A stretch of DNA of 63,143 bases, filler included, from Folioceros fuciformis (taxonomy: Eukaryota), in NCBI GenBank assembly GCA_049999805.1. It is 11 parts of 11 records of this genome, joined end to end, with 100 filler letters (N's around TTAATTAATTAA, not from the genome) between each part and the next. Parts side by side here need not be neighbours in the genome. Positions count along the whole stretch, not along the records: positions 11,275 to 15,531 come from JBNGIO010006489.1; 10 more parts are not named here. One strand, given 5' to 3'. Shown one piece after another: positions 5,723-20,700 of the stretch; position 1 is the first letter of the stretch, and each line of letters starts with the position of its first letter. The notes under the pieces were generated by a model, which was not told the origin of the DNA, searched no databases, and was given only the letters and a program-made list of their open reading frames with translations. The position numbers and the translations under genes are program-made.

Positions 5723-5822
5723 NNNNNNNNNNNNNNNNNNNNNNNNNNNNNNNNNNNNNNNNNNNNTTAATTAATTAANNNNNNNNNNNNNNNNNNNNNN
5801 NNNNNNNNNNNNNNNNNNNNNN
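5723..5822. other. Artificial contig linker (first of ten; others at 11175, 15532, 21167, 26173, 29870, 43430, 47794, 56951, 60286)
   Basis: Identical 100-bp blocks of N with a central TTAATTAATTAA (stops in all six frames). Confidence 0.97.
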
Positions 5823-11174: not shown

Positions 11175-11274
11175 NNNNNNNNNNNNNNNNNNNNNNNNNN
11201 NNNNNNNNNNNNNNNNNNTTAATTAATTAANNNNNNNNNNNNNNNNNNNNNNNNNNNNNNNNNNNNNNNNNNNN

Positions 11275-11945
11275 ATCATGGCGCTCCACGTCACAACGTT
11301 CTTCTCCACGAGTCCATCAAAGACATGCCGAGCATCTTCTACGTTGCCACACCTTGCATACATGCTTATCAAACTATTGGCTACTGACACATCAGCCAAA
11401 TGTCCCTCTCCTCTGATTTGAGCATGAAGGTCTCTCCCCTTCTCTAAGGCCGGTGTGCCCACACTTGCACATGCCTGCAGGAGACATACAAATGTCACTG
11501 AATTTGGTACAGCGATGCCTTCTTCCTGCGTGACACTGTAGAGCTGAAGGGCATCCTGGCCCTTGCCCTGTTGGGAATACCCTGCAATTAGAGCAGTCCA
11601 CGTCACCACGTCTTTCTGGCCCATTTCACAAAACAATCTTTGGGCATCCTCAAGGCTGCCACACTTCGCATACATGTTCACTAAGCTATTGGCTACAGAC
11701 ACATTAGCCAGATGTCCTTGTGCTCTGATTAGCTCATGGAGCTGCTTCCCCGTCACCAGAGCAGGGGAGCCCACACTTACACATGCCTGCAGGAGGCACA
11801 GATAAGTCACAGAGCTGGGTACAGCCACCCCTCCTTCCAGCATAGCACTGTAGACAAGAAGTGCTTCCTGCCCCATGCCCTGTTGGGAGTACCCGGATAT
11901 CATGGTAGTCCACGTCACAACGTCCTTCTCAACGAGTCCGTCACA
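11275..11945 (-). CDS. PLS-class pentatricopeptide repeat protein (partial)
   Basis: Repeating KDVVTWTxxIxGYSQQG / VPNSVTFVCLLQAC / DVSVANSLISMYARCG motifs. Confidence 0.93.
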
Positions 11946-12189
11946 CCCACTTGGTATCCTCCAGGCCCGACAGGGCCAAGCTCGCCTGCCACGCCGCGAT
12001 ACAGGGAGCAGGAACGAGCAACAGAGGGATGCGCCAGGTATCGCCGAAGGCCCTTCCCCGAAACTCCTCCCCTTCCGTACCAGCACAAGGACGCGGGGGA
12101 CAACCAGTCCCTGCCATCCACCGAAAGACGCCGCATCTTCAGCTGCCGCGCATGTGGCACTTGCAGGCTCTGCTTCCACCACGGGTCGT

Positions 12190-12420
12190 CAAACAACACT
12201 CCTCAAGCACATTCCGTGCGGCTCCCTGATCTTCGTCAAGGCACCAGAGTTTGCAAAGACATTGAGAATGCACGCAGAAGTGCCATAGTCCGCCAAAATC
12301 AGGCCCTCCTGCTCCATTCTGTCCAGACAGAACAAACGTCCATACAGAACAGCCGAGGCCCTCCGTTGCATTCCCAGGAACCAGCGCATTCCATGCCACA
12401 CATTTCCCTGTCACCAGCCA
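12190..12420 (-). pseudogene. Frameshifted, degenerate PPR motifs upstream of the PPR ORF
   Basis: VAWNALVPGNATEGLG then, in another frame, DRMEQEGLILADYGTSACILNVFANSGALTKIREPHG. Confidence 0.65.
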
Positions 12421-12930
12421 TTCCATCGTTGGAAAGGTCACTGCATCCATGGACGTTACATCTACAACACTCGCTCGCGTTCCTTCAGCTTTCCGCCGTC
12501 CCTGGACTCTTTCCTCCGATTGAGGGTAGAGTCCCTGGCTGAATGAACGGTTGAGGGCAGCTGATCTGCACTGCACCTGGTTTGACCAGGATTCAAAACA
12601 AGCAGCTCTCCTCGGTTTGCAGTGCACTAAGTGCGAGAGTCAGTCCGTGCCTGGGTGCTCTCGAATTCAACAGCTTATCCTCAGCCACCAGAGCATCATA
12701 CCTTGCCAGTAGTACTGTCCGCAATGAAATTGTTCCACACTGCCTGACGTGCCCTTGTTCCACCTGAAAGCAAGCCGAAAGATCAAACCATGAACAAGCA
12801 ACACAAGGGCTGCAACAGTTCTTCAAACCAGGCAGATGCGCACGCTTTCCACTGCCTTACTTGTGTGGCACTGGCAAGCTCGCCAGGCTTGAAATGCACC
12901 TGACGCATTTCCGTCACCGGGCCGCTGGGA

Positions 12931-13515
12931 CTAAATCTGGTCTGCATCACGGCTTCGCACAATCAACCCCATCCTACTATTCCCTTCTGATGTAGTCATG
13001 GCATTAAATTTCCAGTCCCGAGGACTACCATGCACCATGATCGATCCGACACTCTTCCAGGCTTTGCTGCTAGTGGCAAGGTTGGCGGTGCCTGGACCCT
13101 GCGCTTTCACGCTTTTGGCAAGACTGCCAGTGTCTCGACAAACATTTATGACAACCACCTTAAGCTTGTTTGCCAAATTCCCGCATTCAGCGATGGGATT
13201 CCAAATAACTTCTTCAACATAAAGCTTCTCCGCCTTGTCTGCTTCACCTAAGCAAACATACTCTCTACCATCGTCTTCAGTCTCACCATGAGCATTAACG
13301 TAAAACAGAAAGAAATCGTCCTTATCGAAGTCAGGATGCCTGACAACGTGCTCCAACGTTGATTTCGCTTCCTTAAGATCGTCCACCACACAGGGGATCT
13401 CAAACTTCAAGGGCACACCACGGAGAAGAACGTCGAGTCGCCCTCTGTCTACCTGTCCTCCATCTCTGCCTTTTCCTATACTGACTGCAAGACCTCGCTG
13501 GTGACCTGCTTTCAC
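12931..13515 (-). CDS. Caspase-like cysteine protease (peptidase C14) domain
   Basis: RGLAVSIG, RDGGQVD..RL..LL...LKFEI, FFLFYVNAHG (His76) and NLANKLKVVVINVCR (Cys126), in caspase order and spacing. Confidence 0.8.
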   Translation of the reverse strand: MKAGHQRGLAVSIGKGRDGGQVDRGRLDVLLRGVPLKFEIPCVVDDLKEAKSTLEHVVRHPDFDKDDFFLFYVNAHGETEDDGREYVCLGEADKAEKLYVEEVIWNPIAECGNLANKLKVVVINVCRDTGSLAKSVKAQGPGTANLATSSKAWKSVGSIMVHGSPRDWKFNAMTTSEGNSRMGLIVRSRDADQI

Positions 13516-14340
13516 CCTTTCGTTTGGATATGATGGTTCCTTCCCTGACTTCAGTAGAGGCGGTCCCTGTGCCTGACTTTGGATACGCTGGTTCCTTCCC
13601 TCAGGTTCTCCACACTCAGTCCTGATGATCCCTTCTACTAGTTCAACTCCAGGACTACCTTCAAGAGAAGCACAAAATGCTGTCAGTTCCGCAACAAAAC
13701 TCTGTTGGAGAAATTCGATCGTTTTGTCTTTGCTCGAGTGACCTCATCAAAATGTCAACACGATCACCAATGTCCCCGTCTCCCCCCCAATATCCCCACT
13801 GCTCTCCAAAAATACGTCCAAAACATAGTAGTTAAATTTGATCAAGTTGCGTGCAATGCTATACAGATGACACTGCATACCCTGGAGTCCATTAAACAAG
13901 ATCTGTCGTAACTTGACCTGCAATGCACAACCACTGGCCATGTCATGAAAGCCAAAGAGAGCATACATCACTAGCGAAATGTCACAGACCTCAGAAGGTA
14001 AACGTACTTGGAATCTTGGAAAGAAGCCTGGACGACAATCGTCTTCGTTTATCTCGGCATTGTACCCACCTCTTTAAGTAGTTGTACTTGTGCACTGTAC
14101 CACCCTTCCAGTCTCTCGGCATTGTAGCCGCCTCCCTAAGTACGTGTACTTGTGCGCTGTATCACCCTTCCAGACCAACTGTCGTTTCCCTTGAAGGTCT
14201 TTACCTTCTTTTCCGTGTCATCCAAGGTGACGGGAACGAAGAATCCAGGGCTAGGATTCGCATCATCTTCATAGCACAAGTTTAGTCTCTTCATCGATAA
14301 TACGAGATCGTTCGCTTCCGTGCTTTTGAGGATCTGGTGA
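13516..14340 (-). pseudogene. TORNADO1-like Roco COR domain, multi-exon, with frame disruptions
   Basis: LVLSMKRLNLCYEDDANPSPGFFVPVTLDD, YLGRRLQCRE, PGFFPRFQ|VKLRQ (GT-AG intron 13918-14007), YSIARNLIKFNYYVLDVFLE, DRVDILMR, FCASLEGSPGVELVEGIIRTEC. Stops at 13744-13749 and a 62-bp duplication at 14052-14173. Confidence 0.75.
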
Positions 14341-15646
14341 CCTGGTCCAAGGTTGCGAGCTTGAGAAGCTTTTGAGGCAAAAGTTTTCTAAGCTGCTGCT
14401 TCCACCTTTCCTTCCCTCCCCCAAATGTCACCTGAGGACAGAACATGACTGTTGCAACACTGCACCTTGCAGGAGAGATGCCTTCCTTCACATGGAAGGT
14501 GGGTCTATGGACCGTAGGATCCCACCACCTGAGTTCTGCTCAGCTCAGCTAGGCTCCCAGCCCATTCATCGTCATCCCTTCCTTTGGACCTTTTTCCTCT
14601 GAATGAGACTGCCCGTTTGGGTTGCTTCAAATCCCACATACCTCGAAAATACACATCATGCCTGCCAAAGGAAGAAAAGTCAGATTGCGCATTCGAATGA
14701 GAAACAGTCTGTATGTCGTTCTGAATTGTGTGTGCATCAAAAGGTCTGCCTCCCGTTGTACTCAGGTTAGCTCAGCTATCGTAAACATAAAGGCGAGCAC
14801 GCTGAAGGATGTAGACGATTCGTCGGCAGAGCGCAGGGAAGGAGTACACAAACTAACAGCCACTACCCGTACAAACTATGTAATTCTCCCATTCACATAA
14901 ACTAACTATGCAATTATCCTATTCAGTGTGTGCCAAACAAGGAGAGAAACAACAGTCTCAAACCCTCAATTTGTGGACCCTGTCCGCCGAATGCTCCACG
15001 TAGAACGGGTCCTGTTCTGAATCAGCTCTCGTCCTCTCCACTTTCAGCCTGTTTGGAACCTTTCGTCCTGAGATTGTCTCTGGAAATGGTCGGGCGTAGA
15101 AGAAATTCCTTCTGCACCTCCGCATTTGAGCATGATATGATGCCATTGGCATTGCCCCGGTCATGAACTTATGTTAGCCGTCAGTGGAGGGGTCAGGTAC
15201 CCCATTGGAGCGGTAGCAGTGCAAGACAGGCCAGGACGAATGGGCCGTTCTGTTGGATGGCTGGCATCCATGTTCCACATCACCGCCCTACAAGAGCTCG
15301 AGTCACAACACAAAACAGCACTGTGCCTTCGGCCCGGTACATCAGTCAGAAGGAAAGGCAAGTTGGCTTGCTGACTGGCCCGGCTAATGAAACCTCTGCC
15401 TACCAATACCGAGATACGCCCCGTTCACAATGCAAAACGACGTTCTTGCCAAACAGGCACAGAGAGGGAGGCGACGTGAGAAGATCGGATCAGAAGCAGT
15501 TCGACACACCAACAAACAGGCAGTACAGTATNNNNNNNNNNNNNNNNNNNNNNNNNNNNNNNNNNNNNNNNNNNNTTAATTAATTAANNNNNNNNNNNNN
15601 NNNNNNNNNNNNNNNNNNNNNNNNNNNNNNNGCCACAACACCTGGT

Positions 15647-18600
15647 TTGCTTGTGGCCTGTTTGTCCTCTGTGTCCAAGAGTACAAATTGGTGGTTCTTA
15701 GACAGTGGAGCGTCTAACCACATGTGTTCCTCTAGAAAGTCCTTTGTGAATTATAAAGTAGCACCCTGTGAGCATGCTGTAGTGCTGGGAGATAATTCTC
15801 ACATACCTATTAAAGGTATAGGTTCAGTGACAGTCACCCTGCAAAATGGGAAGACATGGGAGTTAGAAAATGTACTCCATGTTCCAGCACTCAAGAAAAA
15901 CCTTGTAAGTACCATGGCCTTAGGAAAAACAGGTCGGTACAGAATTCTGTTTGAAGGTTTAGAGTGTGTTATCACAAGTGTGAGTTCACCCTCAGATGTT
16001 ATAGCCAGAGGCACTCCTTTGTATGATCTGTATGTTCTTGATTTTACCTCAGATGTTCAACCAAAAACAGTATATGTAGCTGAGTCTGCAGAGGATAAAA
16101 CAAAAATAGCATTTAGATGGCATTGTAGATTAGGCCATCCAAACATTAAGGCTATGAGGCGGTTGTTGAAGGACCACATGGTTACAGGTTTCTCGGAATC
16201 CAACCTACCAGATTTGGAGCTGTGCGTTGCATGTGTTCATGGGAAGCAGTTTAAATCACACTTTGGATCTGGAAAACCACGAAACAAGACAGAAGTGTTA
16301 GACTTGGTGCATTCAGATATTTGTGGTCCTATGTCAACACCAAGTTGGGGAGGAGCCAAGTATTTCGTTGTGTTTGAAGATGACACAACGCATTTCACTG
16401 TCACAGAGTTACTGAAGCACAAAGGAGATGTGTTTGACAGTTTTAAACGATATTTGGCTTACGCTGAGAGACAAACTGGACGCAAGCTGAAATGTATTCG
16501 TTCAGACAATGGGAAGGAGTACCTGTCATCAGCATTTCAAGAATACTGTCAGGAGCGTGGCATAACTCGACAGCTCACCATTCCTTATCATTCTGACATG
16601 AATGGCAGAGCAGAACGTCGACATCGTACTATACAAGATACAGCTAGAGCACTTCTGTTTCAGGGGAGGCTATCAACACGTTTCTGGGCTGAGGCAGTTC
16701 AAGTGGCTACTTATCTGCAGAATAGGATTGCAGTCTCTTCACTTCCCAATGTTACTCCCTTTGAAGCTTGGACAGGTGTGAAGCCTGATATTTCACATCT
16801 TCGTGTTTTTGGCAGTACAGCATATGCACATATACCAGATCAGCTTAGAACCAAATTTTCCTTTAAGTCTAAGCGGCATGTTTTCATTGGGTACACACCT
16901 GGTATTCATGGCTACAAATTGTTTGAGCCATTCTCCCGTAAAGTCATTCATGCACGAACAGTTGCTTTTGATGAGAGTTCAGTCCTTAAGCCTCCTTCTA
17001 CTGGTGGTGATTCTCCTGTTTCACATCCTGACATTGATGTTCAGTCCTCTTTAGATGGATTAGTGGACCTGGATGAAAAAGACCTTATAGATGTTGTGGA
17101 GTTTCCTACCTTTGATGCATCTGATGTTTCTGGTGATTTAGATCCAGGCCTTCATCCAGGTCCACCACCTGTTGTACCACCAGATCTTGCTGTTCCTGTT
17201 CCAACTGATCCTCCTCATGTTGCTGCTGAGGCTGACTCAGCATCTGACGATGACTCAGTGGCCCTTCCTCCTGATCCTCCTCCTGCAGCTGGTGAGCTAG
17301 ATGTAGATGATCCTGTAGAATATGTCCTCCCACCACAGCCAAGGAGATCAGCTAGGGTTCATAGAGGGCGAGATCAGTGGACTGAAAAACCATATGAGGC
17401 TGAAGACTGGCGTACCAGGAGAGTGCCTCGGGCAGTGGGAGTAGATCCTACTGCTGTTGTAGATGAGCTCGCCCATGTGTCTATTCAGCCTGGATATGAG
17501 CCTCAATCTTACCAAGAAGCTATCACGGGACCTGAATCTCGACATTGGATTGCCGCTATTACTTCTGAATATAACTCCCTTATACACAATCAGACTTGGG
17601 AGCTATGTCCCCCGCCTAAGGGGAGGAAAATCGTCAGCAGTAAATGGGTTTTCAAACTCAAATATAAAGCTGACGGTACTATAGCGAGGTACAAAGCTCG
17701 CCTGGTTGCCCGTGGTTTCTCTCAAGTGCCGGGGCTGGACTACAACGAAACTTTCTCCCCTGTGGTTAAGTCACAATCTCTGCGCGCCTTGTTTGCAATG
17801 TCAGCTTTCTTTGGCTTGTTCATTCATCATATGGACGTGAAGACAGCCTTTTTGCATGGAAAGCTTGAAGAAGAGATCTTCATGCAACAACCTGAAGGGT
17901 ATGAAGAACAAGGGCGTGAGGATTGGGTCTGCAAGTTACTGAAAACAATCTATGGCCTCAAACAGTCACCAAGAGCTTGGTACCAGGTTATAGATGAGTT
18001 TCTTCGTGATCTTGGCTTTAAGAAGAATTCTGCAGACTCGAATGTGTATCTCCTGCAACAAGAATCAGGTTATGTAGTGTTAGCTCTCTATGTTGACGAC
18101 TGCATTTTGCTTGGAACCGACCTAGACGGCATAAACAGGGTCAAAGGCCTCTTATCTGGAAGGTTTGATATGGTAGATGTTGGTGAGCTTTCGTATTGCC
18201 TTGGTACCCAACTCCTGCGAGATCAATCTAGTGGAACTCTTGTTATACATCAGGAGAAGTACATCTTTGATATGCTGTATAAGTATAAGCTCACAGAGGC
18301 TAAGCCTGCAGCAACACCTATGGAGGCAGGTCTTAAGCTCACTCTTGAACATTCTCCTGTGACTGAGTCCGAGAAACAGGAGATGGAGGGTGTGCCTTAT
18401 GCGCAGGCTGTTGGCTCACTTATCTTCTGTTCAAATAACACGAGGCCAGATATTGCTATGCCTGTCAGTATGACATCTCAGTTCTTAAAGCAGCCAGGAA
18501 GAATACACTGGTCAGCTGTTAAAAGAGTTTTGAGGTACCTGAAGGGTACAAGTAATCATGGTATACATTTCACAAAACAGCAGTATGAAGGTGAATCGCT

Positions 18601-19087
18601 TACATTGCTCGGGTATTGTGATGCCGACTGGGCTGCAAATTCTGACTCACGGAAGTCTGTCTCCGCTTATGTTTTCTTGCTGGCTGGAGGTGCTGTTACC
18701 TGGTCATCAAAGAAGCAAACGACAGTTTCGTTATCTTCAACCGAGTCAGAGTATTATGCTCTTACACAGGCAGCAAAGGAAGCCATATGGCTTCGAAGGT
18801 TGCTGAAGGATTTAGGGCAGGAGCAATTGCAGCCAACAACAATCTATTGTGACAGCACAGGTGCCTTGTCCCTGGTGGAAAATCCAGTTTTCCATGCAAG
18901 GACAAAACATATTGAAGTCCATCATCACTTTATCCGCGAGGCAGTGTCTTCTGGCCAGGTTCGTCTTGAGTATATTCCTACAGACTCAAATGCAGCAGAT
19001 GTCTTAACAAAGGCCTTGCCAAAGAGTAAACATTTGCAGTTTAAAGAAGCTTTAGGAGTCCTAGACTCCTCTTACCTTTCAAGTTGA
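15647..19087 (+). CDS. Copia Pol (PR-IN-RT-RNase H), 5'-partial
   Basis: WFLDSGAS, WHCRLGH, VHSDICGP, RSDNGKEY, YKARLVARG, LYVDDC, YCDADWA, NAADVLTK. Confidence 0.96.
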   Translation: MLVACLSSVSKSTNWWFLDSGASNHMCSSRKSFVNYKVAPCEHAVVLGDNSHIPIKGIGSVTVTLQNGKTWELENVLHVPALKKNLVSTMALGKTGRYRILFEGLECVITSVSSPSDVIARGTPLYDLYVLDFTSDVQPKTVYVAESAEDKTKIAFRWHCRLGHPNIKAMRRLLKDHMVTGFSESNLPDLELCVACVHGKQFKSHFGSGKPRNKTEVLDLVHSDICGPMSTPSWGGAKYFVVFEDDTTHFTVTELLKHKGDVFDSFKRYLAYAERQTGRKLKCIRSDNGKEYLSSAFQEYCQERGITRQLTIPYHSDMNGRAERRHRTIQDTARALLFQGRLSTRFWAEAVQVATYLQNRIAVSSLPNVTPFEAWTGVKPDISHLRVFGSTAYAHIPDQLRTKFSFKSKRHVFIGYTPGIHGYKLFEPFSRKVIHARTVAFDESSVLKPPSTGGDSPVSHPDIDVQSSLDGLVDLDEKDLIDVVEFPTFDASDVSGDLDPGLHPGPPPVVPPDLAVPVPTDPPHVAAEADSASDDDSVALPPDPPPAAGELDVDDPVEYVLPPQPRRSARVHRGRDQWTEKPYEAEDWRTRRVPRAVGVDPTAVVDELAHVSIQPGYEPQSYQEAITGPESRHWIAAITSEYNSLIHNQTWELCPPPKGRKIVSSKWVFKLKYKADGTIARYKARLVARGFSQVPGLDYNETFSPVVKSQSLRALFAMSAFFGLFIHHMDVKTAFLHGKLEEEIFMQQPEGYEEQGREDWVCKLLKTIYGLKQSPRAWYQVIDEFLRDLGFKKNSADSNVYLLQQESGYVVLALYVDDCILLGTDLDGINRVKGLLSGRFDMVDVGELSYCLGTQLLRDQSSGTLVIHQEKYIFDMLYKYKLTEAKPAATPMEAGLKLTLEHSPVTESEKQEMEGVPYAQAVGSLIFCSNNTRPDIAMPVSMTSQFLKQPGRIHWSAVKRVLRYLKGTSNHGIHFTKQQYEGESLTLLGYCDADWAANSDSRKSVSAYVFLLAGGAVTWSSKKQTTVSLSSTESEYYALTQAAKEAIWLRRLLKDLGQEQLQPTTIYCDSTGALSLVENPVFHARTKHIEVHHHFIREAVSSGQVRLEYIPTDSNAADVLTKALPKSKHLQFKEALGVLDSSYLSS

Positions 19088-19141: not shown

Positions 19142-20281
19142 CTAGAAGGTCGCAGACACAGAGTTATCATCAGAGTCTGAGCTACTGCTATCTGGTTCAC
19201 AAAAAAAAAAAAAAAAAAAAAACAGGCTTCGTCTATCTCCAGCTCTGTTTCTTCTCAGCAGTTCCAGGTAGTTGGGATCAAACTCGTGCTCTATTGGTTC
19301 CTCGTCAGTATCCTCATCCTCGGTTGCGTAGTCCACACCCGCTCCTTCATGCATTCTCTGTCGGGACTCTGTGGATAGCAGATGACACTGAAGTCAGGTT
19401 GTAAGTACACAGAGCTACCTCAAGGCACAGAAATAGTGTGCAGATAAATATCAGAGATGAGCTTGTGACTTACTGTAGAATGAAATAAAATTCCCGTTTT
19501 CTCCACCCCATCTGAACCAGTCCTCTCTCACCATAGCAATTCCTGTAATTGTGTAGACATAAGCTTCAGGAGTCAGAGGGTCGTCTATTCCATTGCCGTC
19601 AGTTACCAGCCTCACAGTCCTGGTCCTGTGTCCTCTAGGTAGGGTGTATGGCCTTGGATTGTGTGGTGCAGGCAACACGACGTACTCCTCCTCCTCCTGT
19701 GGTGGAACACGAACTGCGTTCAGAGGACCCTCAGGTGTGAAGCGGCTGTATCTAACAGTGGGAGCTGCAATAGGAGGTGTGGACGTAAGCCGTGGAAGTT
19801 CAGGTCTTGAGGTCCGTACACCAGCAGCTTGGAGCTGACTCCTGAGGACATAGATTTCCTGGGTCAGCAGAGCCTCGCGTTCTTCCATCTGGTGGACACG
19901 CCTCATCCAGTGAGTGCTCACACGCCATCCTTCTCGTTCCACATGTCGGAGCCACCTGGGAGCCCTTCTGTGCCGTGGACACAAAGGAGCTGTTTCAGGG
20001 CAGACACACATTGGAGTGTCAGCAGCAGTGTCAGGTGGCGCAGGATGTGGAGCGAGGTATACAGCAACTCGGGCCGGAAGCTCTTCTCCATTAGCCGCTG
20101 AAGCTTCGTGGGCAGCCGGTTGCTCTTGAGCTAGTGGGGCTGCATGCTGCACCTGGTGCTCCTCAGTCTCCACCTTAGTGACAGCCTCAAGCATCCGGTG
20201 GCCGACGTCTTCGTCCTCAGAGGAGCTGTCCAGTGCAATTGGCTGACGAGCTGAGCCCATGGAAACGCCGTTGTTCACCAT
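19142..20281 (-). CDS. Putative spliced antisense gene inside the copia element (exons 20281-19474 and 19368-19142, about 344 aa), unknown function
   Basis: Two same-frame ORFs bridged by a 105-nt GTAAGT...CTGAC...CCACAG intron (19473-19369) that removes the intervening stop. Confidence 0.65.
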
Positions 20282-20700
20282 CTCCGTGGCAGGTAGTGAC
20301 AACGAGCACAGTTGAGCTCACGCTGAGCATGGAAGCGAAAGCTGGGCTCTTATGCTGTGGTTGAGAGTAAAGCCGCACGAAATTCCGACTGTACGCGAAC
20401 AGAGTGAGACTCTCGTTTCTTTTGTTGTTGCGCTCGAGTGCTCAAGTAATTTATGTTCAAGCAAGGCCAACGGGTTCGTGTGATATACGGCTAAGACATA
20501 CACAATGAGTGGGAGTGTTGAGAAAATAAATGCTTGTTATATATACATTGTTAGTATGTACTTAGGGTTAGCTCATTAGGTTTATGTGACGGTTATAACT
20601 GCTCATACTCCTAGACATATTTGTGGGTGTGCTACCACACAAATTTAATATATTGTATTTTGTGCGATATGCCTGCATGATCGTGTTTACAAAATTTACA

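Follow-up and report, generated by a model that had tools for sequence, protein, structure and literature searches.

Roco proteins that end in a protease have been described in bacteria and brown algae. In the accessible text of Kaur, Iyer, Burroughs and Aravind (2021, PMC8195603), bacterial LRR-AP-GTPase(Roc)-COR proteins carry variable C-terminal effectors that include caspase, trypsin and TIR domains, and COR is given, citing Gotthardt 2008, as the dimerising part of Roco proteins. The same dimerisation logic has been predicted for bacterial LRR-Roc-COR proteins with a caspase or CHAT effector. As far as the available parts of the respective papers describe them, a Roc-COR-CHAT protease from Runella was prepared in a study of bacterial gasdermins (bioRxiv 10.1101/2021.06.07.447441), and ROCO group 3 of brown algae, with a C-terminal peptidase (IPR009003), was proposed to be an immune receptor (PMC11378527). 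Caspases themselves are said, in passages of three further papers, to be restricted to animals, plants having only metacaspases (PMC5756287, PMC10896300, PMC12521494). Here we analyze a window of 63,143 nucleotides, filler included, from Folioceros fuciformis (assembly GCA_049999805.1), in which a COR end is joined to a caspase domain on the minus strand. We read the locus, 12931-14288 (-), as a pseudogenised member of a multi-copy family of plant nuclear genes in which COR end, linker and caspase share one exon, and place the probability of this reading at roughly three in four.

Results

On the minus strand, 13743-12931 forms an open frame of 270 codons that reads, in the order proposed by an earlier sequence-only reading, as a COR end, a short linker and a caspase domain, an order that the open reading frame (ORF) itself, Pfam and matches to two liverwort Roco proteins all bear out. 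Pfam Peptidase_C14 (PF00656) matches ORF residues 92-213 (E 3.4e-8, 33.9 bits against a cut-off of 21.4) over profile positions 18-142 of 233, which is the large-subunit part only, and a caspase-family profile matches 13707-13126 with an independent E-value (iE) of 1.7e-32. The catalytic residues His152 in ..NAHGE.. (13290-13288) and Cys202 in ..NVCRD.. (13140-13138) align with the invariant His and the Cys motif, respectively, of the family and of caspases, and Arg93 is present in the p20-like domain. Ahead of the caspase, ORF residues 4-46 match two repeated segments each of P0001 (Riccia sorocarpa KAL3698066, 2397 aa) and P0010 (Marchantia OAE26163). Identities are 56% (over 43 aa) and 53% to P0001 (E 1e-11 and 3e-11), and 42% and 40% to P0010 (E 1e-8 and 1e-7); the matched segments lie ~105-150 aa after the Pfam COR-A match of these proteins. 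The linker measures ~24 aa, against ~75-110 aa in the homologs P0002, P0003 and P0012. A 24-nt direct repeat, 92% alike (13578-13601 and 13523-13546), has one member inside the linker.

Further COR motifs upstream, together with a canonical intron, had also been proposed, and both are present. A COR profile was built from four segments, two copies from P0001 and two from P0010, both Roc-bearing proteins. Its C-terminal 170 positions (105-274) are colinear at the locus, spread over three frames and one intron (Table 1). The outermost piece is also colinear by eye with ..LDLCY/F..YF(I/M)P(L/M)LL.. of P0001 and P0010. The intron, 14007-13918, separates ..FPRFQ from VKLRQIL.., and its removal gives a contiguous match to P0001; the ORF of P0002 starts at the homologous point. 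Pfam gave no COR match on the locus pieces, and the proteins matched by the COR end are liverwort LRR/Roc/COR proteins. Arabidopsis TORNADO1 is the named plant Roco protein, and the label 'TORNADO1-type' for the COR domain at the locus is presumptive.

We scanned 1.84 billion representative sequences with HMMER (E≤1e-3) and obtained 11 matches. Two of them, P0001 and P0010, match by the COR end only, and nine carry the caspase. The COR profile was then applied to P0002, P0003, P0004, P0012 (a cluster-mate of P0004), P0005, P0007, P0008, P0009 and P0011, with P0006 left out. The COR end stands at the start of four of these nine caspase-bearing sequences (P0002, P0003, P0004 and P0012; E 1e-11 to 1e-5), and the remaining five lack it (E>0.5). 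COR end, linker and caspase share a single ORF in 3 of 8 caspase-bearing clusters, for which BLASTP was also run. P0004 and P0012 stem from Trinity transcript assemblies of the hornwort Nothoceros aenigmaticus; P0002 and P0003 each come as one ORF, called without splicing on a short genomic contig, and P0002 is colinear with 13866-13042 by tblastn. The fusion thus occurs beyond this copy. Because the same junction recurs in several independent plant clusters, hornwort transcript assemblies among them, it is, as judged by sequence comparison, a conserved feature and no artefact. A word-indexed search for near homologs with the ORF returned none, and the single locus from a metagenome scan with P0005 (L001) is an ordinary caspase exon that is unrelated and has no COR. 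The linker of P0004 and P0012 (residues ~85-135) contains three near-identical acidic Ser-rich units of ~19 aa, and the P0004 isoform diverges directly before the KPK motif, as with a retained intron.

The liverwort proteins show what else these domains are combined with. Pfam Roc scores above its cut-off on P0001 and below it on P0010. P0010 combines RNI-type LRRs with a Roc domain, and its residues 590-980 lie nearest to Roc/COR-A(/COR-B) clusters in ESM Atlas features, which we treat as a lead only. P0001 contains two tandem Roc-COR units, the COR end being repeated at 1088-1130 and 1978-2020, and its C-terminus is an alpha/beta hydrolase with a GHSLGG motif, making it a Roco protein with a hydrolase effector. 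The cluster of P0006 (807 aa, nine members) is represented by Marchantia polymorpha PTQ31690 / Mp6g00900, named 'Caspase family p20 domain-containing protein' at its source; here a double SERAC1-like hydrolase is fused to a complete caspase domain, and several near-identical genes of this type lie on one Marchantia chromosome. These sequences give the impression that bryophytes have shuffled COR, hydrolase and caspase as modules.

To place the protease, a seven-row family profile (A1) was compared with PDB sequences at E≤1. It gave 233 matches, the best 60 of which are all caspases (caspase-1, -3, -6, -7 and -8; E ~1e-32), with alignments that span both the large and the small subunit. The family segments R.G..DR, KPK....aC.G and S.R....G..F.q.L pair with their caspase counterparts, and the family Arg, Cys motif and small-subunit Arg align with caspase residues. 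The ORF alone gave no phmmer match among PDB sequences. Fold comparison was made on the AlphaFold model of the homolog P0002, not on this copy; the model has a mean predicted local distance difference test (pLDDT) value of 60, with 75-95 in the caspase core. All top Foldseek rows were caspases or CED-3. VIA-align gave Z scores of 22.6-26.7 (18-29% identity) for eight animal caspase-family entries, 19.4 for MALT1, 18.0 and 16.4 for Arabidopsis metacaspases 4 and 9, 14.6 for yeast Yca1 and 11.8 for trypanosome MCA2, the identity of P0002 to metacaspases being 12-17%. ESM Atlas likewise returned only animal caspase clusters for P0002 (0.87-0.89). A fold search with the N-terminal COR part of P0002 gave aIF2-alpha as its best match, at a Z of 8.2, within the noise range. 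By profile and predicted fold, the family is caspase-type, nearest to animal caspases and clearly above metacaspases. From the conserved Arg pair we infer an acidic P1 specificity.

The copy at the locus is itself decayed, as had been suspected from its TGATGA stops and a 62-bp duplication. Both are real, and the damage goes further, with at least four frame breaks. In the COR profile, frame 1 gives way to frame 0 between 14205 and 14190. Next comes the 62-nt tandem duplication (14043-14104 and 14105-14166, 81% alike), whose copy b is out of frame and has a TAA stop in frame 0 at 14076-14074; one read-derived contig is identical over 14009-14152, covering the duplication region with 0 differences. 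Relative to this copy, paralogous read contigs have one extra base at 13777 and two at 13735. The extra base at 13777 is carried by 58.8 of 157.8 depth in run X1, 0 of 135 in X2 and 338.9 of 380.6 in X3, and the two bases at 13735 by the full depth of every run. Once both insertions are restored, the stretch containing the stops reads open. The homopolymer at 13782-13788, earlier named as the place to look for errors, is not the break, which lies in the one base missing at 13777 and the two at 13735. Candidate introns of 25, 26, 51 and 71 nt that would skip the stops were rejected as too short or out of frame.

Conserved residues have been replaced as well. Leu194 stands where every read contig covering 13163 has the Pro of KPK, Asp204 where every contig covering 13133 has the Gly of CRG, and Phe144 where every contig covering 13313 has Cys before the His motif, and in all three cases the contig residue is the family consensus. 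Among the 17 read-contig differences listed inside the ORF (232 further differences lie beyond these), 14 alter the amino acid. Downstream, a p10 profile from five homologs had no match below E 0.08 in any frame of 13120-12300, although p10 is present in P0002, P0003 and P0006. We had aligned a p10 remnant by hand downstream of 12960 (frames 1 and 2), but this profile did not bear it out, and it was discarded. With its frame breaks, in-frame stops, lost conserved residues and no recognisable p10, this copy, as far as its sequence can tell, cannot make an active enzyme.

Other copies exist. Up to 7-11 distinct read contigs at 90-99% identity cover single COR or caspase sites, so the family has multiple copies in this organism, some of them better preserved, including contigs that are open where this copy is broken. 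Many contigs at 90-95% identity match the whole 4.2-kb contig, non-coding parts included, with a summed depth several-fold above that over 11985-12268. In each of the three runs, a read contig links 13290 with 14568 by way of 23 other letters; a relative rearranged in this way would be missing the COR end together with the caspase domain's first half. In run X3, which we guess to be RNA, intron and spacer are covered alike, and no 14007/13918 joint is among those listed.

The locus lies on JBNGIO010006489.1 (positions 11275-15531 of the window, 4,257 bases; all positions count along the whole window). The window consists of 4-6 kb contigs, and an artificial join of 44 N, TTAATTAATTAA and 44 N separates unrelated short contigs at ten sites, so neighbourhood across the joins says nothing about linkage. 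The absence of a ROC P-loop, noted from the sequence before, holds for the entire contig and window by Pfam and tblastn. The 'gap' that was thought to precede the COR domain does not, since a contig-join linker occupies 15532-15631; upstream of the last COR match the contig continues for 1.2 kb, and ROC or LRR parts are therefore not recoverable from the window. No LRR or other repeat sensor was found on the 4,257-base contig, the region beyond its end being out of reach, and when the ORF pieces and nine homologs were run against the whole window by tblastn, neither a second copy nor any Roc or LRR piece came up. The caspase remnant is followed downstream on the contig by an array of PPR motifs; at least three reading frames are used in this region (11277-12420, -), and read contigs pile up on it to ~100 times flank depth, which suggests that this genome holds a very large PPR family. 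The PPR array, the GT..AG intron and best matches from liverworts and hornworts together point to a land plant as the source, probably one without seeds. The copia polyprotein in Table 1 lies on a different contig from the locus, and its 5' end is cut by a linker.

Table 1 Features of the locus and of the surrounding window (window coordinates).
Feature	Position	Strand	Basis or remark
COR profile 105-130, COR-A-like segment end (..LNLCYEDD..GFFVPVTLDD..)	14205-14288	-	frame 1; weak, iE 0.2
COR profile 131-159	14190-14101	-	frame 0; iE 0.005
COR-B start (..YLGRRLQCRE..), including duplication copy a	14105-14190	-	frame 0; COR profile, tblastn with P0001
Duplication copy b, same COR positions as copy a	14043-14104	-	frame 2; COR profile 136-159
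COR profile 136-159 again	14113-14039	-	frame 2; iE 0.98
COR-B exon end encoding ..DDCRPGFFPRFQ	14008-14042	-	tblastn to P0001 (..SPAFYPRYQ..)
90-nt GT..AG intron	13918-14007	-	sequence; gap in the P0001 alignment
COR-B exon (VKLRQIL..NLIKFNYYVLDVFLE..)	13750-13917	-	frame 0
COR profile 191-274	13854-13606	-	frame 0; iE 3.2e-15
Frame-shifted 42-nt stretch with TGA TGA stops (13749-13744)	13735-13777	-	comparison with read contigs
COR C-terminal end (ORF aa 1-46)	13606-13743	-	matches to P0001, P0010, P0003, P0012
Linker, ~24 aa	13534-13605	-	between COR end and caspase
Caspase large-subunit (p20-like) domain	13042-13533	-	PF00656; tblastn to seven homologs
Degenerate tail, TAG stop at 12933-12931	12931-13041	-	p10 unrecognisable
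PLS-type PPR array	11277-12188	-	same contig, downstream of the caspase remnant; PPR_2 E 4e-37
Six-frame-stop linkers	5723-5822, 11175-11274, 15532-15631 and seven more sites		sequence
Ty1/copia polyprotein, 1,151 aa, uninterrupted	15632-19084	+	Pol_BBD, gag_pre-integrs, rve, SH3_retrovirus, RVT_2
288-aa open frame	19454-20317	-	no Pfam match

Discussion

Several observations weigh against a decayed Roco-caspase gene and have to be set beside the evidence above. Pfam COR-A scores of P0001 and P0010 (24.8 and 29.1) fall below the cut-off of 35.3, and COR-B has no match on either protein even at E≤10. Roc and caspase were found together in no protein or contig among the sequences examined; word-indexed searches for longer relatives with the ORF and the family alignment A1 gave none, a result of little weight, and the longest caspase-bearing match is the 807-aa hydrolase-caspase protein. 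P0003 has no catalytic Cys, so not all relatives are active. Finally, this copy's state at 13735 appears in no read contig (as with those at 13133 and 13163, though contigs drop rare variants) and the neighbouring PPR array changes frame too, so some of the breaks could be assembly errors.

Pressed to its end, this last point would leave the gene intact in the organism and turn all breaks into mistakes made in sequencing or assembling a fragmentary draft, in keeping with a window that is a chain of 4-6 kb contigs, with the 2-base difference at 13735 and with the jumping PPR frames. We consider this improbable. The duplication region is matched exactly by a read-derived contig, this copy's state at 13777 exists in the reads because none of the X2 depth has the extra base, conserved residues were replaced through point changes, and the missing p10 is beyond a mere shift; the duplication and the lost p10 cannot be explained as assembly errors. 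That the COR-caspase junction itself is a misassembly chimera, as a fragmentary draft might produce, deserves almost no credence, given the same junction in single ORFs of three independent clusters, transcript assemblies included, and the colinearity of P0002 across it.

Two further explanations accept the fusion and differ over what it belongs to. The COR end of ~45-90 aa might be a detached module on short stand-alone caspases that have no Roc, the upstream COR pieces being relics of the donor. The Nothoceros proteins, which begin with Met just ahead of the motif, would fit, as would the lack of any match that joins Roc and caspase and the Marchantia pairing of the same caspase with a hydrolase. 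Yet the COR match at the locus continues upstream across the intron, to at least 170 profile positions in all, and the ORFs of P0002 and P0003, which open at the same exon boundary, were cut there by the method, their source being short genomic contigs on which calling took no account of splicing; the Nothoceros assemblies, too, may be 5'-truncated. We regard this explanation as unlikely, and feel similarly about the idea that a transposon or segmental duplication amplified a gene fragment and that all copies in the genome are dead. The many related contigs over the whole 4.2-kb contig and their summed depth, rearranged joints such as 13290 to 14568 and the mostly non-synonymous listed differences all speak for amplification, but paralogous contigs have retained the consensus residues and keep an open frame at points where this copy breaks, and no transposon features were found on the locus contig, the copia element being on another contig. 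A pseudogenised copy of a multi-copy COR-linker-caspase family, with better-preserved members elsewhere in the genome, remains our preferred reading.

How intact members might work can be sketched by analogy. Initiator caspases are activated by induced proximity. An upstream Roco module, with an LRR sensor, a Roc GTPase and COR as in P0001 and P0010, would control dimerisation through COR. COR pairing would bring two flexibly tethered caspase domains together, and their proximity would activate them in the manner of initiator caspases, so that they could cleave after acidic residues and set off a cell-death or immune response. We infer this Roco switch from known systems, which itself counts against leaning on it. 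The (LRR-ROC-)COR-caspase switch suggested by the sequence-only reading holds for its second half, with COR and caspase in one frame and one exon; for its first half, Roc together with caspase was found in no sequence examined, and the full-length architecture of the family is unproven. We offer only tentatively, as a possibility less likely than its opposite, that seed-free land plants keep true caspases wired behind Roco switches (LRR-Roc-COR-caspase), as intracellular death or immune receptors that stand beside NLRs and are driven by COR-mediated proximity.

The architecture had been put forward as unknown in land plants. We found no paper on a plant Roco-caspase fusion, nor one on the locus tags of the Marchantia caspase genes, in searches to which supplementary material, such as gene lists of bryophyte genomes and NLRs, was external; LRR-Roc-COR-caspase proteins as such, on the other hand, have been described in bacteria in the accessible text cited above. 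Bacteria are known to have Roco proteins whose effector is a clan-CD protease; the occurrence of this kind in plants with an animal-type caspase is new. A bryophyte-type family that scores as caspase by sequence and fold is at odds with the statement that plants lack caspases; were seed-free plants to have Roco-caspase receptors, that statement would hold for seed plants only. If intact full-length members exist, plants would have sensor, switch and executioner in one polypeptide, directly testable, and a link between bacterial Roco-protease defence, animal apoptosome logic and plant cell death. The copy at the locus is a dead relic, and what it offers is a pointer to its family.

Set against known systems, the family resembles animal caspases (caspase-3/6/7/8/9, CED-3 and Dronc) most closely in its protease, with the best profile and fold matches over both subunits and with His, Cys, large-subunit Arg and small-subunit Arg all aligned. 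It differs from them in having COR as N-terminal neighbour instead of a CARD or DED prodomain and in having Asn two residues before the Cys, where the aligned caspase has Gln, and the copy at the locus lacks the small subunit. The Marchantia hydrolase-caspase P0006 has a caspase of this family (33% identity in its p20 part), but its N-terminal partner is a SERAC1-like hydrolase and not COR. Conversely, the liverwort Roco proteins P0001 and P0010 share the COR end (40-56% identical) and COR-B motifs colinear with the locus, whereas after COR they have nothing recognisable or a hydrolase, and no caspase.

Among Roco proteins, the bacterial Roc-COR-protease proteins, as described in the accessible texts, share the layout, with a clan-CD protease directly behind COR in the effector position. 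As in the bacterial LRR-Roc-COR-effector proteins, the effector after COR varies among paralogs, being a caspase at the locus and in P0002, P0003 and P0012 and an alpha/beta hydrolase in P0001. Unlike the bacterial proteins, the plant form is eukaryotic and has introns, its protease is nearest to animal caspases and not to CHAT, and it is known here from the COR end and caspase alone. ROCO group 3 of brown algae, so far as the available text goes, is likewise a eukaryotic ROCO with a C-terminal protease, but one of trypsin fold and in another lineage. Animal Death/CARD Roco proteins (DAPK1; mollusc and sponge clusters) also couple a Roc-COR switch to cell-death machinery; there, recruitment of caspases through adaptor folds is expected, whereas in the plant family the protease is fused directly.
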